Part shown: positions 33,926 to 61,093 of the stretch, in pieces
Layout: each line of letters starts with the position of its first letter
Numbering within the stretch: position 1 is the stretch's first letter
DNA from: Candidatus Saccharimonadales bacterium
Lineage (GTDB): Bacteria > Patescibacteriota > Saccharimonadia > Saccharimonadales > JACQNP01
Length of the DNA: 64,000 nucleotides
Assembly: GCA_038257245.1 (NCBI GenBank)
Contig: JBBSJL010000001.1
Coordinates: 23,776 to 87,775, forward strand
Direction: 5' to 3'
Notes under the pieces: generated by a model
What the model saw: only the letters and a program-made list of their open reading frames with translations
What the model was told of the DNA's origin: nothing
The model's database searches: none
Translations under genes and position numbers: made by a program

Positions 33926-35012
33926 GAAACAAAATCCAGACTGTAAGATAGTTTATGTTGGCGAAAGAAACGGTAAATATATTAGTATGCTTGATGGCAA
34001 TGTTGATATTGATGATTTTCGCAGTATTTTTGCTGGCAAGTTCCGACGCTATCATGGTGAGTCATGGTTTAACAGACTGACAGATATAAAAACCCTACTA
34101 TTAAACGTTAGGGACTTTCTATATTTACTCATAGGAACAGCACAGAGCTTGTTAATCGTTAGAAGAATAGACCCAGATGTAATTTTTCTAAAAGGCGGTT
34201 TCGTAGGTGTGCCCATAGGCCTAAGTGGAGCATTTTGGGGTAAGAAGATGGTTACTCACGATTCGGATGCTGCCTCTGGGTTGGCTAATCGACTTATAAG
34301 TCGCTGGGTAATGTATCATGCAACCGCTATGTCAGCCCAATACTATAAATATCCAGGAGAGGCAGTTAAGCACGTCGGGGTGCTGGTCGGGTCTGATTAT
34401 AAATATGTAAGTTCAAAGCTAAGTCATGCATATAGGCAGGAACTGGACATTCCTACTGATGCGAAAGTTTTAATGATTACTGGCGGCAGTCATGGCGCAG
34501 CAGCTATCAATCAGGAAATTGCTAGGTTCGCCATGACTTATCTTAAAAAAGACGATAAATTGCACATGATCCATATAGCCGGCAAGGGCAAGACGGGTGT
34601 TTATGAGGATATATCTCATCCACGCCTACAGATACACGAGCTAGTATCGGACATGTTCAAATATAGTGGTGCCGCTGATGTTATTGTTACTCGAGCGGGG
34701 GCTAACACATTAGCCGAATTTGGTGTTCAGGCAAAATCCTGCGTAGTTGTCCCAAATCCTTTGCTAACTGGCGGCCACCAACTAATAAACGCTGAATATT
34801 TAGCCGCTAATGAAGCAGCTATAATTGTAGATGAAAACACCTTTGGGGAAGAACAGGGAAGTGTTCTCTGGTCTGAAATCGACACATTATTATATAAGGA
34901 CCAGAAACTTGCAAAGAAGCTGGCAGATAATTTCCATACAATAACTATCAAAGATGCAGCAAAGCAGATAGCCAAACTATTAATAAATATTTCAAACGGT
35001 GATGTCGACTGA
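33852..35012 (+). CDS. murG: UDP-GlcNAc:lipid I N-acetylglucosaminyltransferase
   Basis: The GTG start is needed to include the G-loop (ILLTGGGTGGHIMP). It overlaps the ftsW 3' end by 74 nt. C-terminal RAGANTLAE motif. Confidence 0.9.
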   Translation: MKILLTGGGTGGHIMPLLAVAHELKKQNPDCKIVYVGERNGKYISMLDGNVDIDDFRSIFAGKFRRYHGESWFNRLTDIKTLLLNVRDFLYLLIGTAQSLLIVRRIDPDVIFLKGGFVGVPIGLSGAFWGKKMVTHDSDAASGLANRLISRWVMYHATAMSAQYYKYPGEAVKHVGVLVGSDYKYVSSKLSHAYRQELDIPTDAKVLMITGGSHGAAAINQEIARFAMTYLKKDDKLHMIHIAGKGKTGVYEDISHPRLQIHELVSDMFKYSGAADVIVTRAGANTLAEFGVQAKSCVVVPNPLLTGGHQLINAEYLAANEAAIIVDENTFGEEQGSVLWSEIDTLLYKDQKLAKKLADNFHTITIKDAAKQIAKLLINISNGDVD

Positions 35013-35941
35013 TGTTGGGTAAAAAGAAAAATAATAATATCAAGACTCGGCAAGGCAGAAAAGCTCCATCTTCTGCGCAGAACGGCAAAAATAATAACAA
35101 GGTATTCTCGTACTACTCGAGTCGTTCCCAGATAGAAACTGCCCGACCACGCAACGACACTTTTGATCAAAAAACCAAGACATCCAACAGAGACCTCAGA
35201 CATATCCCAACTCTGTTTGCGTTACTTGTAATTGTTTTTTCGATAGGATATGCAACGATGATCAATACGGCTAATCCCAAAATTGTTCCATTGTCACCAA
35301 CGTCAATATCTATACTAAAGCAGACAGACTATTACCAACAGAGCTTCGAGGATATATTGAGTGAAAGCATTATGAGTAAATCAAAAATAACGATTGATAC
35401 CAAAGATCTAGAGAAAAAAATACTCAAAAAACACCCTGAACTACAAGATGTTTCAATCAACATCCCCCTTGTTAGCAAAAGGCCAGTTATTCAAATAAGT
35501 CCTGCTATCCCAGTTCTGATAATAACCTCAAATACAGGAGAGTTTGTCATAGGTGATAACGGTAAAGTTCTTATGAATATGTCAGAAGTCCCAGAAAACC
35601 AATACCAGGGATTGATAAGGGTAAAAGACAGTGTTATAAGTGATATTGGCGTAGGCGAAACAGTTTTACCCCTTTCGACGTTAGAGTTCATAGACGACAT
35701 AAAATATCAGTTTCAACAGAGAAACTTCGAAGCTGAATATATAGAATTACCCGCAATAGCTAACGAACTACATGTTAGACCCAGAGGGGAAGGGTACATA
35801 GTTAAATATAATCTACAGATTGATGCCAGGGAACAGACTGGTGTTTACTTTACGCTTCTAGATAAGTTAAAAGCTGAATCAGCTGCATTGCCAAAGGAAT
35901 ACATAGACGTCCGCATAGAGTCCAGGGCATATTATAAGTAA
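35012..35941 (+). CDS. ftsQ: FtsQ/DivIB-like cell-division protein
   Basis: Start overlaps the murG stop. Basic cytoplasmic N-terminus, single TM helix, POTRA-like ectodomain. The call is largely positional. Confidence 0.6.
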   Translation: MLGKKKNNNIKTRQGRKAPSSAQNGKNNNKVFSYYSSRSQIETARPRNDTFDQKTKTSNRDLRHIPTLFALLVIVFSIGYATMINTANPKIVPLSPTSISILKQTDYYQQSFEDILSESIMSKSKITIDTKDLEKKILKKHPELQDVSINIPLVSKRPVIQISPAIPVLIITSNTGEFVIGDNGKVLMNMSEVPENQYQGLIRVKDSVISDIGVGETVLPLSTLEFIDDIKYQFQQRNFEAEYIELPAIANELHVRPRGEGYIVKYNLQIDAREQTGVYFTLLDKLKAESAALPKEYIDVRIESRAYYK

Positions 35942-36017
35942 GTCCCCGATCCCTCTACCCTGACAGTTCGTAATTTGTTCATATTAGTGTACTTATAAAA
36001 CATACAAAAAAACTATA

Positions 36018-36492
36018 CGATAATGCCAAAAGGGCAGAATGTCAAATATTTATGTAACAACAGCGTAGTGTAGGGGAAAGACCACAAATAATATCAAAGT
36101 AGTGAAAAAGCAAACATTTCACGACAAGGCTGTGGAAAAGTCAAGCATTGCACAAACATACAACATCAAGAGTAGCTACTAAGTATGCCGCCGCCGGCAA
36201 AGCGCAATAGTTAAGCCAGGATCAAGTAAACAGTCAAAAGCAGCGGTTAGTAATAAAAAGTCCCCTACGCAGGCGGGTATAAGTTATCAACTATTAACAG
36301 GTATTGCGAGTCGCAAAAGGTATATTGTGCGACATCATGTCTATGTGTATGTTTGTTGTTTTGGTATTGCTGCCTGCCACGTTGTCTCCGTGTTAGTCTC
36401 GATTACCTAAGCTTATTTGCTTTCTCTATCACTTGCCCTACTTAGTGCCCAGCTGTTACGTTCTTGGTTGTTGTCATTGTTTTAGTTTATCG
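36018..36492. repeat. ~475-nt element: two collinear imperfect inverted-repeat arms (36018-36162; 36346-36492) around a ~180-nt G+C-richer core
   Basis: Collinear complementary blocks:
- CGATAA 36018 / TTATCG 36487
- GTAACA 36054 / TGTTAC 36454
- GTAGGG 36070 / CCCTAC 36436
- AGTGA 36101 / TCACT 36429
- AAAGCAAA 36107 / TTTGCTTT 36416
- GTGG 36132 / CCAC 36377
- ACAAACATACA 36152 / TGTATGTTTGT 36346. Confidence 0.6.
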
Positions 36493-36697
36493 AAAAAAAA
36501 TAGTTGGTGTTTGGTGTTCGTAAAATGTTCTTAGTTATGAAATTATCTTTTTGCTAGTATTGTTGAGCGGTTACTTCAAGTACATTATCCGTGCGTGTCA
36601 GAACCTCTTTAAACGATGCGGTTTCATAGTAACCCGAGTAGTCTAAATATATGTATCGTAAAAATGTTGGCTCGTCGGAATCGAGTGACCCACAATT

Positions 36698-36724
36698 ACT
36701 GAGACGAACGATGTTCGTCTCAGT
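36698..36724 (-). terminator. perfect 12-bp hairpin downstream of the sigma-r4/HARE-HTH gene (possible terminator, no U-tract)
   Basis: ACTGAGACGAAC (36698-709), loop GAT, GTTCGTCTCAGT (36713-24). Lies ~60 nt past the stop codon of 36783-37835. Confidence 0.4.
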
Positions 36725-36782
36725 ATCAAATTCAGGAAGTTCTAGCCTTAAATAGCGTACTTGCTTGATGTGCCATTACTTT

Positions 36783-37835
36783 TTAAGCTATGGTGTATGT
36801 TGCTTTGGCTGTTCGTTTGAACTGCAGCTTACCTTGTAGATTCAATAGGATAGTCGTTTCTTTAACGTAGCGGCTTTTTAGAACTTCTTTAACGATTTCG
36901 TCTCGGTGCATTGGTTTGCCAGTTTTTTGTAGCACTTCTGTTATGACGTCGGCGACAGTCCCTTTGCTATAACCCCATTCTCTTAGTGCGTATATCCCAC
37001 GGCCGATAAGAACAAATCGTTTATCTTTGATAAGTTCGTTGTGAATTGCTTGTGTAGTTACATCTTTGCGTTTAAATTCAGAATCTTTAATGGCAGCAGC
37101 AATTTCGTTGAAGTGCATGTACTTACCATTTTCGCTAAGTATTACGTAGATCTTATCTCGAATATTCTTAGGGTTAACTAGCGGCCATTTGATAAGCCCC
37201 CAACGATCGTTAAGGGTAGCTAGTTTTTTAGAAGTAGATGCAAGTGCCCGAGTATTAGAAACATCCTTAAGTCCAGCCGCTTCAGATACTTCTCCAATAG
37301 AAGCTGGTTTAGCGAGTTTCTTAATTGCGTCGATTACCTTAATTACGTTTGCCTTAATTTTCTTTTCATCGTTAATCTTCTTTACGCCCACAGAAAGGTA
37401 GAAATTATCGTTCTCGTCAATTACTGCAATTTCTGGGCAAAGTGCTGACAGGAATGAGACTTTAGAATAATCTGTCTTCACTGCGGTTTTTATAATGACT
37501 GCAGTTAGATCAGTAATTCTGGATACGCCACCCAGTGTAGCTATGTGGTCTGTAAGAGTTTTTTGTACATCATTGATATGAGGAAGTTTCCCCTGCTCTG
37601 CTTGGGCTCGCATTCGAGTTAATATGGCTTTCTCAAGCTGTCGTACACGTTCCCTAGTGATACCCAGTAATTCACCAATTTGTTCGAGTGTTTCTCGTCT
37701 GTCGTATAAACCAAAACGACGTGAAATAATTTCTCGCTCACGTTCTCTATCAATTGACCCCAACACGTCTTTAATAATACCGTCTAGATTTAATTGATTT
37801 GTCGCTACTTCAGCCATATTGTTCCTTTTCCTCAT
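36783..37835 (-). CDS. sigma-70 region-4 HTH + tandem HARE-HTH domain protein
   Basis: The N-terminal segment ETLEQIGELLGITRERVRQLEKAIL is sigma region 4.2-like. Two C-terminal HARE-HTH-like units (YMHFNEIAAAI...RFVLIGRGIYALREWGY; GKPMHRDEIVKEVL...). No region 2 was seen. A likelier start is ATG 37817, after AGGAAAAGGA. Confidence 0.7.
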   Translation of the reverse strand: MRKRNNMAEVATNQLNLDGIIKDVLGSIDREREREIISRRFGLYDRRETLEQIGELLGITRERVRQLEKAILTRMRAQAEQGKLPHINDVQKTLTDHIATLGGVSRITDLTAVIIKTAVKTDYSKVSFLSALCPEIAVIDENDNFYLSVGVKKINDEKKIKANVIKVIDAIKKLAKPASIGEVSEAAGLKDVSNTRALASTSKKLATLNDRWGLIKWPLVNPKNIRDKIYVILSENGKYMHFNEIAAAIKDSEFKRKDVTTQAIHNELIKDKRFVLIGRGIYALREWGYSKGTVADVITEVLQKTGKPMHRDEIVKEVLKSRYVKETTILLNLQGKLQFKRTAKATYTIA

Positions 37836-48613: not shown

Positions 48614-48689
48614 GGTCCCGTCGTCTAGTGGTTAGGATATCTGGTTCTCATCCAGAAGATCGCGGGTTCGAATCCCGCCGGGATCACCA
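48614..48689 (+). tRNA. tRNA-Glu (anticodon CUC), CCA encoded
   Basis: Cloverleaf folded by hand: acceptor GGTCCCG/CGGGATC, D-arm GTCT..AGGA, anticodon stem TCTGG/CCAGA with loop TTCTCAT, T-arm GCGGG-TTCGAAT-CCCGC, then A-CCA. Confidence 0.9.
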
Positions 48690-59782: not shown

Positions 59783-61093
59783 GTGATCCCTAGTGCCTCT
59801 ACAGAATATAGTGATTCCATCGTTAAGTACCATCAATATAAACACGAACTTGGAATTACAAATACCGAAGCAAAATCACATCCGGATACGCAAGAAGTAT
59901 TTTTCGAATTAATCGGAGTTGTCGAAGAATATCCTGAATTGATTTTGGCATATACTGGGGTACAAAGATGTAGGGGCAATAATAGGCGTGAAGCGATAGA
60001 AAACGTAAGAGAAATTGAGGATACAATCCTAGACTTATCATTAGACGTTGGGATAATTTCTAGTTTAGAACACTCAAAAAGAAGTATGTCATTGGATGAT
60101 AACGGAATCAAAGATATATCTAAACAGTTCGTTAAGTTGTTTAAGGATATTATCCCACCAGAATTACTGCCCAAAAAACCAGCAAAGAGGAAAAGGATAA
60201 AAAATAATCAAATTGCAAGTTCAATTGAAGCTGTTGATGAGGATATGGATGTCGTGCTGATCGATGGCAATAAGTTAATTTTCAATAATATTGAAGACGT
60301 CGATCCAACAGATACTCAAACAGAGCTACCTACCCCCACAAATGGCATCAAAAACCCATTTGACTATAATACGGATAGTGCGGCGAATAGCCTAGCTGTT
60401 CAAGTTAGAAATCTGGATACTGCCGAAAAGGCTTTGGCTGGCTATATAGTGTTTGGACGCTTGACGGCTGGAATCAACTTAACGGTTTATTCACTTCAAA
60501 GGGTCATGAGAACATTAGTTGGTACGGATGAAATGCTCACAGTGCGTGGGGCAACCAAGAGATTTGAGATGTGTAATGATTTTATTCTGGGCAAACACGG
60601 CAAAGGTACTACTATTGCAAGGTCGAGTAATAGAGACCAGATTTTAAGTGATATTGGGCCTTCGTTCTCGCATCCTCAAGCGGCCTGCAGTACTGGCAGA
60701 AATGATAACGATATAGCGGCAAGACTAGAATGGTGGTTCCCTGGTAGGGGTGAATCAACTAGCTTACAGAAAATTAAGTGTTTCGGTTGTTCCGCCATAG
60801 ACGCATGTCTTGAATTTTCAATTGCCCATCCTCAGAAGTTTGGTATTTGGGGGGGTGCAAGCGAAAGAGAGCGCCGAGCGCTTAGAGGCACAATGAAAAA
60901 AAGTGGGCGCGCTAGTTTCGAGAGTAGGGTCGTTACTTATAGGAAAAGATCGGCCGAGAGACTTATGTCATTTATTGAAGTACATGCAGATGAAGAAGAC
61001 AAACCAGACCTAGAGTTTAATTTGTTAAGATTTCTCGACCCAGACTATAGGTATAAATTTGATACTTTAGATAAATTCGTAACAACGGAATAA
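59783..61093 (+). CDS. 436-aa protein with C-terminal WhiB-like (Wbl) Fe-S cluster domain
   Basis: GTG start after GGAGA. The C-terminal AACSTG-x-WWFPGRGE-x-KCFGCSAIDACLEFSIAHPQKFGIWGGASERERRAL gives a C-x30-C-x2-C-x5-C pattern plus G[IV]WGG and a basic tail. The N-terminal ~300 aa are unassigned. Confidence 0.75.
   Translation: MIPSASTEYSDSIVKYHQYKHELGITNTEAKSHPDTQEVFFELIGVVEEYPELILAYTGVQRCRGNNRREAIENVREIEDTILDLSLDVGIISSLEHSKRSMSLDDNGIKDISKQFVKLFKDIIPPELLPKKPAKRKRIKNNQIASSIEAVDEDMDVVLIDGNKLIFNNIEDVDPTDTQTELPTPTNGIKNPFDYNTDSAANSLAVQVRNLDTAEKALAGYIVFGRLTAGINLTVYSLQRVMRTLVGTDEMLTVRGATKRFEMCNDFILGKHGKGTTIARSSNRDQILSDIGPSFSHPQAACSTGRNDNDIAARLEWWFPGRGESTSLQKIKCFGCSAIDACLEFSIAHPQKFGIWGGASERERRALRGTMKKSGRASFESRVVTYRKRSAERLMSFIEVHADEEDKPDLEFNLLRFLDPDYRYKFDTLDKFVTTE

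Follow-up and report, generated by a model that had tools for sequence, protein, structure and literature searches.

In other bacteria the resolution of chromosome dimers is directed by the FtsK translocase at the septum. Known sites for this step, those of the XerC/XerD-dif type in Escherichia coli and of CodV/RipX in Bacillus subtilis, are 28 bp long, with two 11-bp arms around a 6-bp centre and partial dyad symmetry. Here we report on a stretch of 64,000 nucleotides (nt) from a Candidatus Saccharimonadales bacterium (GenBank assembly GCA_038257245.1, contig JBBSJL010000001.1, positions 23,776 to 87,775 of the forward strand; hereafter the window, numbered from its first letter), and on an intergenic gap in it at 35942-36782. 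This gap is very probably the meeting point of the replichores, and its core, at 36308-36335 on the + strand, a 28-bp dif site for Xer-dependent dimer resolution. The site has the 11-6-11 layout and the partial dyad symmetry of known dif sites, and its inner arm bases and hexamer resemble theirs (22/28 for the predicted dif of Bradyrhizobium japonicum). Like them it is intergenic and single-copy in the available sequence, and it is located at what is probably a replichore junction. It differs from them in its lineage-specific arms (GTCGYAAAA / TTGTGCGAC), which are more symmetric than those of E. coli, and in being embedded, in Saccharimonadales, in a conserved module of boxes of ~565 bp.

Linkage between a xer gene and its site is a possible hallmark of single-recombinase systems, and was noted for XerS/difSL and XerH/difH (PMC5357621). 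The former occurs in streptococci and lactococci and the latter in Helicobacter and Campylobacter. The site described here resembles both in its near-palindromic arms and in the xer gene that lies close by in loci from Candidatus Shapirobacteria. However, it is a 28-mer with a 6-bp centre, whereas difSL has 31 bp with an 11-bp centre, it does not resemble the difH consensus in sequence, and in Saccharimonadales it has no linked xer gene. The Shapirobacteria recombinase scored 242-248 bits against XerC/XerD models in comparison to 131 bits against XerS. Its score for archaeal XerA was 217 bits, with an NCBIfam cut-off of 220, and the dif site of Thermococcales also has conserved flanks, with repeats on its two sides for which a role in binding partner proteins was proposed (PMC2958812). 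The 28-mer was nevertheless identical to the dif of Pyrococcus abyssi at only 7-11 of 28 positions. Moreover, Saccharibacteria have FtsK, as in the cultivated Saccharibacterium TM7x (TM7x_00370; PMC10768705), whereas archaea do not.

Mobile elements that copy the dif of their host form a known class of Xer-exploiting elements (PMC5357621). Elements found directly at our site resemble CTXphi, VGJphi and TLCphi of Vibrio cholerae in that they combine a rolling-circle Rep with a Zot-like ATPase and have no integrase that could be found, in that one full and one hybrid site are left, and in that different elements occupy the same position. In contrast to those Xer-exploiting phages their hosts are Patescibacteria, and the two groups of elements have no close relatives in common. 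The plasmid sites cer and psi consist of a core and ~180 bp of accessory sequences (PMC5357621). The site in the window resembles them, and this is a resemblance only, in that its core is accompanied by roughly two hundred bp or so of conserved accessory DNA; unlike in cer and psi, there are boxes on both sides of the core, a DnaA-like box lies on opposite sides in two lineages, and the site is chromosomal.

The 28-bp site and its position

The core at 36308-36335 (+) reads GAGTCGCAAAA-GGTATA-TTGTGCGACAT. It is made up of a left, XerC-type arm at 36308-36318 (+; GAGTCGCAAAA), the central hexamer GGTATA at 36319-36324 (+) and a right, XerD-type arm at 36325-36335 (+; TTGTGCGACAT). The left arm and the reverse complement of the right arm (ATGTCGCACAA) agree at 9 of 11 positions. 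The strongest conserved block of the gap was a 24-nt near-palindrome, GTCGCAAAATATACATTGTGCGAC, which was present with 0-3 changes in all 17 of 17 Saccharimonadales genomes, in spite of an identity of no more than 27-35% for the FtsQ-like protein encoded next to it. The copy in the window, GTCGCAAAAGGTATATTGTGCGAC at 36310-36333, was the only one in the 64 kb at up to 3 mismatches. Conservation continued for two bases past each end of the 24-mer and then fell, and spanned exactly 28 positions (-1 to 26 around the 24-mer). Within the arms only position 5 (Y) and position 20 (R) of the 24-mer varied, independently of each other, and the other variable positions lay in the central hexamer, which was found as GATATA, TATACA, GGTATA, GATACA and TGTATA. 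In proteobacterial dif sites the central hexamer varies between species (Carnoy and Roten, PMC2731167). The consensus across the lineage was GTCGYAAAA-N6-TTGTGCGAC. A pairing of TCGCA with TGCGA, listed among local hairpins in a first-pass annotation of this DNA, was found to be real and corresponds to the half-site pair of the dif palindrome.

Both strands of the window, ~128,000 positions, were scanned with eight known or predicted bacterial dif sites and the identities were summed. The E. coli and B. subtilis references are what we take to be the dif sequences of these species. The six other references were from PMC2731167. The summed identity peaked at 36308 (+) with a value of 144, in comparison to a mean of 60.8 and a standard deviation of 14.5 (z ~5.7, rank 1). 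The 28-mer was identical to the dif site of B. japonicum at 22/28 positions, to that of Agrobacterium tumefaciens at 20/28 and to that of E. coli at 19/28, and ranked first in the window for each of them.

The gap that holds the site (35942-36782, assigned to no strand) is the longest stretch of the window without an open reading frame (ORF) of at least 60 amino acids; it measures 841 nt and the runner-up 331 nt. It is located between the convergent 3' ends of an FtsQ-like gene (+) and of a gene for a Sigma70_r4/HARE-HTH protein (-). Genes are nearly all on the + strand up to 35941 and nearly all on the - strand across 36783-59678, and the dcw cluster, represented by mraW, ftsI, mraY, ftsW, murG and the FtsQ-like ORF, ends at the gap without ftsA or ftsZ. 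The + strand is A-rich on the left (A 0.455) and T-rich on the right (T 0.451). The first-pass annotation had correctly described the ORF-free stretch, the switch in gene orientation, the end of the dcw cluster without ftsA/ftsZ and the A-rich and T-rich composition of the two parts. In TM7x, ftsA and ftsZ are located elsewhere and not in the cluster (PMC10768705). GC skew in the window was ~+0.1 to the left of the gap and ~0 or negative to the right of it.

A degenerate 24-mer scan of metagenome contigs gave at least 120 contigs with one match each, and in IMG/VR the 24-mer was found in 43 contigs, with one exact match per retrieved stretch. Together, >160 public contigs, which represent no fewer than two classes of Patescibacteria, had the site once each, almost always where genes converge and strand composition flips. 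With the contigs oriented by the motif, long ORFs among the matches listed were mainly on the + strand upstream of the site (244:37) and on the - strand downstream of it (263:94). The genes murG and ftsW lay upstream even when their products were only 23-40% identical to the proteins of the window. The order ftsW, murG and ftsQ-like gene, gap, and then the opposite-strand sigma-like gene and topA was shared by 16 species-level Saccharimonadales genomes, with a gap of 730-1950 bp. In the 200 nt on either side of the site, which are mostly non-coding, GC skew changed from +0.12 to -0.13 in 86 of 99 loci and AT skew from +0.08 to -0.14 in 83 of 99 loci, both among the matches listed. The A-rich left and T-rich right 'arms' seen in the window probably arise because the strand asymmetry of the replichores flips at the site. 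Among the possibilities raised in the first-pass annotation, the terminus was therefore essentially right with respect to replichore convergence, to which a dif site can now be added, whereas the inverted-repeat element that accompanied it did not stand as a functional feature.

Xer genes and mobile elements at the site

A full-length Xer-family gene was located ~300-1350 bp from the site in at least eight metagenome loci, and at 300-600 bp in five of them. Two of these recombinases were tested. Both were full-length and scored ~240-248 bits for XerC, 239-248 bits for XerD and 216-217 bits for XerA, which is far above chance and below the equivalog cut-offs. Close homologues of the tested recombinase are named Candidatus Shapirobacteria. 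In one further long Shapirobacteria contig the site was found ~690 bp upstream of xer, where + genes meet - genes and with gyrA/gyrB facing the site. A second long contig with the same gene layout had no copy of the 24-mer at up to 2 mismatches. In the Shapirobacteria contigs L149 (1.12 Mb) and L150 (0.91 Mb) the xer locus lies ~36-41 kb from the contig start, with gyrB-gyrA reading in its direction. That the two contigs agree in this distance is probably due to a common assembly break point nearby and not to biology. The locus was also placed on long contigs of 706 kb and 942 kb.

Based on its demonstrated architecture, dif similarity, position and conservation, on the xer linkage in one lineage and on natural junctions, we infer that a host Xer enzyme and FtsK act on the site in this organism. 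After replication, Xer-family tyrosine recombinases would bind both arms on each sister chromosome. Strand exchange at the borders of the hexamer would then convert chromosome dimers back to monomers. The FtsK translocase at the division septum would probably direct this step here too.

The natural junctions come from seven oral-type TM7 contigs of IMG/VR (L165, L173, L176, L186, L188, L189 and L191; motif-oriented, with the site at ~1.3-2.2 kb). In these contigs the full site comes after murG and the FtsQ-like gene, and a stretch of 5.1-5.9 kb with genes on the + strand comes after the site. At the far end of the element there is a hybrid copy with exactly the central hexamer and the right arm, joined to an unrelated left arm. 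Among the products of the elements are a replication initiator of the rolling-circle type (Rep; PF23343 with E 2e-10 and phrog_3419 with E 2e-14) and an ATPase of morphogenesis that resembles Zot (phrog_197 with E 1e-7 to 6e-9). The 5.1-5.9 kb elements gave no hit for a Xer-like integrase, and they therefore presumably rely on an enzyme of the host with specificity for the site. Two contigs with host flanks that are 93% identical differed in the element precisely between the full and the hybrid site, and the host flanks resumed exactly at these sites. Judged from their sequence, such junctions are those left by filamentous phages, such as CTXphi and VGJphi, which exploit the Xer recombination of their hosts at dif, and they point indirectly but specifically to site-specific strand exchange at the central region. 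In L176 and L188, the ~400 nt beside the two junctions look swapped, which suggests arrays or repeated recombination. Prophages of oral TM7 have been reported, including hits of an inovirus detector, and the integration site is left unnamed in the passages concerned.

The 24-mer was also found in the phage contigs L154, L192, L190, L179 and L183, with gene blocks of divergent orientation on its two sides. The large terminase subunit encoded by L192 has Pfam support, whereas the terminase-like ORF of L154 has no Pfam match. In several phage contigs AACAGGGGTCA-like repeats flank the site on both sides, and the viral contig L153 has an Xer-like gene of its own 630 nt from the site. The 24-mers of the phage contigs have the appearance of attP sites modelled on the dif of the host.

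Conserved boxes around the core and neighbouring genes

In Saccharimonadales the core sits in a unit of ~565 bp bounded by two copies of GTTCG-N5-TGTTC, which are direct and not opposed. In the window these are the left boundary box GTTCGTAATTTGTTC at 35966-35980 (+) and its direct repeat, the right boundary box GTTCGTAAAATGTTC, at 36516-36530 (+), and no other perfect match was present in the 64 kb. The distance of the left box from the core ranged from -307 to -454 in Saccharimonadales-type loci, with most values near -345, and the box usually lay 18-45 nt behind the stop codon of the final + gene. The right box of the relatives lay at +184 to +257, mostly at ~+195, and often no more than ~25 nt from the stop codon of the final - gene.

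Inside the gap only short blocks were conserved in an alignment of 42 sequences. On the left side this alignment gave AGGGGA (36072-36077) followed by a TATAAA-like box, TAATAT (36089-36094), together spanning 36072-36094 (+). The word CAGGGG was enriched at -300 to -201 from the core, with 15 seen and ~2 expected. Next to these is the GTGAAAAAGCAAACATTTCACG box at 36102-36123 (+), with the consensus AAAAAGCAAAT-TTTTCACG. The block before the core, TCCCCT..GGGTAT..TTATCAACT at 36261-36292 (+), corresponds to TCCCCT..GGTAT..TAATCAnCT in relatives, many of which have CCCCTG/CAGGGG as an inverted pair. Within 50 nt before the core CCCCTG was seen 23 times, in comparison to ~1 expected, and CAGGGG/CCCCTG words were enriched beside the site in phage contigs as well. 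A GTCTAT box at 36339-36344 (+) follows 3 nt past the core.

The remaining box, CTGTGGAAAAGT at 36130-36141 (+), is a DnaA-box-like motif (TGTGGAWAA) that points toward the core, with TTTTCCACA on the - strand at 36131-36139. Several relatives have a perfect TGTGGATAA at this box. Within 400 nt of the core the orientation was almost exclusively toward it (TGTGGAA 46:0, CTGTGGA 43:1). In Saccharimonadales-type loci the box was located at ~-150 to -370, mostly at -180 to -250, and in Shapirobacteria on the opposite side, at ~+180 to +230 and on the other strand. This polar box was usually found on one side of the core. Opposed pairs, as a replication fork trap of the Tus-Ter or RTP-Ter type would have them across a terminus, occurred in 3 loci (L031, L040 and L127), and no terminator protein was identified.

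The boxes of the module are most simply read as putative protein-binding sites. The GTTCG-N5-TGTTC boxes consist of direct repeats with an 11-bp periodicity, which is the architecture of the sites of OmpR-type response regulators, for example ArcA, which acts at psi. It is possible, although rather doubtful, that dif is the core of a conserved nucleoprotein module of ~565 bp in Saccharimonadales, and partly in other Patescibacteria, with GTTCG-N5-TGTTC repeats of the type bound by OmpR/ArcA, a polar DnaA-box-like motif ~190 bp off and CAGGGG repeats. If this is true, accessory proteins could control dimer resolution in these ultra-small bacteria, either as a topological filter of the cer/psi type or by coupling it to DnaA and the cell cycle, and a single XerA/XerC-like recombinase might act instead of the plain FtsK-XerCD mechanism.

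The genes beside the gap were characterised with Pfam scans of all ORFs of at least 150 amino acids, and no dnaA, dnaN, ftsK or tyrosine recombinase gene was detected among those of the window. The FtsQ-like gene (35012-35941, +) encodes 309 amino acids and occupies the usual place of ftsQ without a Pfam match; its product is 27-35% identical among relatives, and an exact-sequence look-up gave no record. The - strand side of the gap carries the genes for the Sigma70_r4/HARE-HTH protein and topoisomerase I as well as dprA and pth, and the remaining genes of the window are ordinary housekeeping genes. The Sigma70_r4/HARE-HTH gene (36783-37835, -) encodes a 350-amino-acid protein with Sigma-70 region 4 and HARE-HTH domains and adjoins topA, a synteny that was identical in every Saccharimonadales locus holding both genes. 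The protein is named variously by the sources, as a sigma factor-like HTH protein or as RNA polymerase delta subunit, and its closest relatives were all from metagenome-assembled genomes of Candidatus Saccharimonadales / Saccharibacteria.

In many relatives (L009, L013, L008, L020, L147 and others) 1-2 extra - strand ORFs of 136-297 amino acids, which are mutually unrelated, separate the right GTTC box from the sigma-like gene. The window has none, and for the one extra gene tested no pseudogene remnant was found in it. This terminus-proximal slot seems to be a hotspot of gene gain and loss. At 36697-36725, 58 nt past the stop of the sigma-like gene, the window has an inverted repeat of 13 bp without mismatches around a loop of 3 nt, TACTGAGACGAAC gat GTTCGTCTCAGTA, which contains CGAAC/GTTCG words as in the boundary boxes. 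It has no T-run on either strand and is therefore not a canonical intrinsic terminator. Further away, a tRNA gene (48614-48686, +; RF00005, 65.9 bits) lies inside the - strand gene block. The first + gene after the run of - strand genes (59783-61093) encodes a protein of 436 amino acids, unusually long for the WhiB family, with a WhiB domain only near its C terminus (residues 300-367).

Alternative readings and implications

The first-pass annotation had described two inverted arms of ~145 nt around a structured core, and had proposed a large ornate non-coding RNA (ncRNA) or two diverged, opposed copies of a small RNA (sRNA) gene, with a helix between 36018-36162 and 36346-36492. Such an RNA would fit the length of the gap, which is unusual for a compact genome, and conserved blocks with variable spacers can also mark an RNA. 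The short complementary blocks do exist, including the 11-bp pair 36152-62 / 36346-56. However, when 36010-36165 was aligned with the reverse complement of 36343-36495, the best local alignment consisted of this 11-bp block only, and 199 of 1000 dinucleotide shuffles scored as well; the global alignment score had a z of ~2 (38/1000 shuffles). The 486-nt element at 36010-36495 did not fold better than shuffles, with z values of +0.89 and +0.12 on the two strands. The arm sequences, as well as the G+C-rich GCCG...CGGC hairpin, fall in spacers that are not conserved among relatives. A scan of the gap with the Rfam covariance models, at gathering and at permissive thresholds (E up to 10), gave no match. 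For 42 homologous regions from box to core, RNAalifold predicted no consensus structure beyond a palindrome of 8 pairs, and the covariation term was -0.07. Among 131 distinct sequences the positions of the palindrome varied independently and not in a compensatory way (pair 5/20: C:G 66, T:G 53, C:A 11, T:A 1); Watson-Crick pairing at variable positions corresponded to the expectation under independence, and pairing in the flanks of the palindrome to that from base frequencies. The conserved block is a DNA site and not an RNA helix. The same tests bear on two sRNA copies, the arms of which are not alike beyond shuffles, and an RNA in either form is extremely unlikely. Conserved small ORFs were also considered, but the peptide-like strings that recurred among relatives were readings of one DNA motif in three frames.

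It is very unlikely that the 28-mer is no more than an attB for phages and further mobile elements, and not the host site for dimer resolution. The terminase-bearing contigs L192 and L154 with their divergent gene blocks, and the Xer-like gene on L153, are what such a site would lead one to expect. However, the site is nearly invariant, single-copy and placed at the convergence point also where no element adjoins, as in the window; it is the best dif match there, in Shapirobacteria it shows linkage to a xer gene of the chromosome, and the filamentous-phage-like elements presumably need a host enzyme and belong with a class already known to copy host dif sites. An origin of replication is also hardly credible here, although a region with a DnaA box, an A/T-rich stretch, flanking regulator repeats and boxes at fixed spacing is oriC-like. 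In enterobacterial oriC, likewise, conserved boxes stand at fixed spacing with variable sequence between them, and in our loci the TGTGGAWAA box, perfect in several relatives, keeps a roughly fixed distance from the core and the GTTC-N7-GTTC repeats flank the module. In contrast to what an origin would require, genes converge here in the window and in most of ~100 other loci, and an origin at this place would set ~90% of the genes head-on to replication. The gap has one DnaA-box match, and the window is not enriched for them (3 matches, 1.7 expected). With tblastn no dnaA was found in the 1.14 Mb of sequence from 151 loci. A recombination site is what the linkage to xer, the junctions of the phage insertions and the dif similarity all indicate.

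A further proposal is compatible with a dif site at the core and concerns the flanking boxes, which could be the promoter or regulatory region of an unannotated small transcript, or roadblocks to convergent transcription. AGGGGA followed by the TATAAA-like box would suit it, GTGAAAA / TTTTCAC / GTGGAAAA segments could form alternative hairpins, and the GTTC boxes lie within ~20-45 nt of the flanking stop codons. We consider it unlikely, as a scan for sigma-70 promoters and intrinsic terminators was at or below chance, with a shuffle-level count of promoter sites and none at the conserved boxes, and no conserved ORF or RNA structure was found.

Some observations also weigh against a replichore junction with a host dif. 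GC skew at third codon positions was equal for genes pointing toward and away from the site (-0.029 vs -0.032), and replication skew is inseparable from coding-strand bias. As GC skew is confounded with the coding strand, the terminus call draws mainly on the orientation of the genes and on what identifies the site as dif. Within ~6-10 kb of the site no xer gene was found in any Saccharimonadales locus, and for the conserved DnaA-box-like motif at ~-180 the vicinity of an origin would be the more usual setting. The window covers 64 kb, and the single copy of the site and the lack of a xer gene hold for this stretch.

With these points taken together, a dif site at a replichore junction is still the reading that we prefer. 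The feature is an ordinary and expected component of a chromosome, and a new lineage-specific example of a known system. Full-text literature searches that combined dif or Xer with the names of these phyla (Candidate Phyla Radiation, Patescibacteria, Saccharibacteria) gave no description of a dif, and a large dif survey of 2011 makes no mention of TM7; the dif of this lineage has apparently been undescribed hitherto. Something new may lie only in the accessory boxes by which the core is surrounded. For Saccharibacteria and at least one other Patescibacteria class, GTCGYAAAA-N6-TTGTGCGAC provides a searchable landmark of the terminus, which can be used for checking metagenome-assembled genomes, for orienting contigs and for deriving growth rate from read depth. 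In human oral TM7 the site is the integration point of small filamentous-phage-like elements, and it is the putative integration point of some tailed phages, which carry the same sequence.

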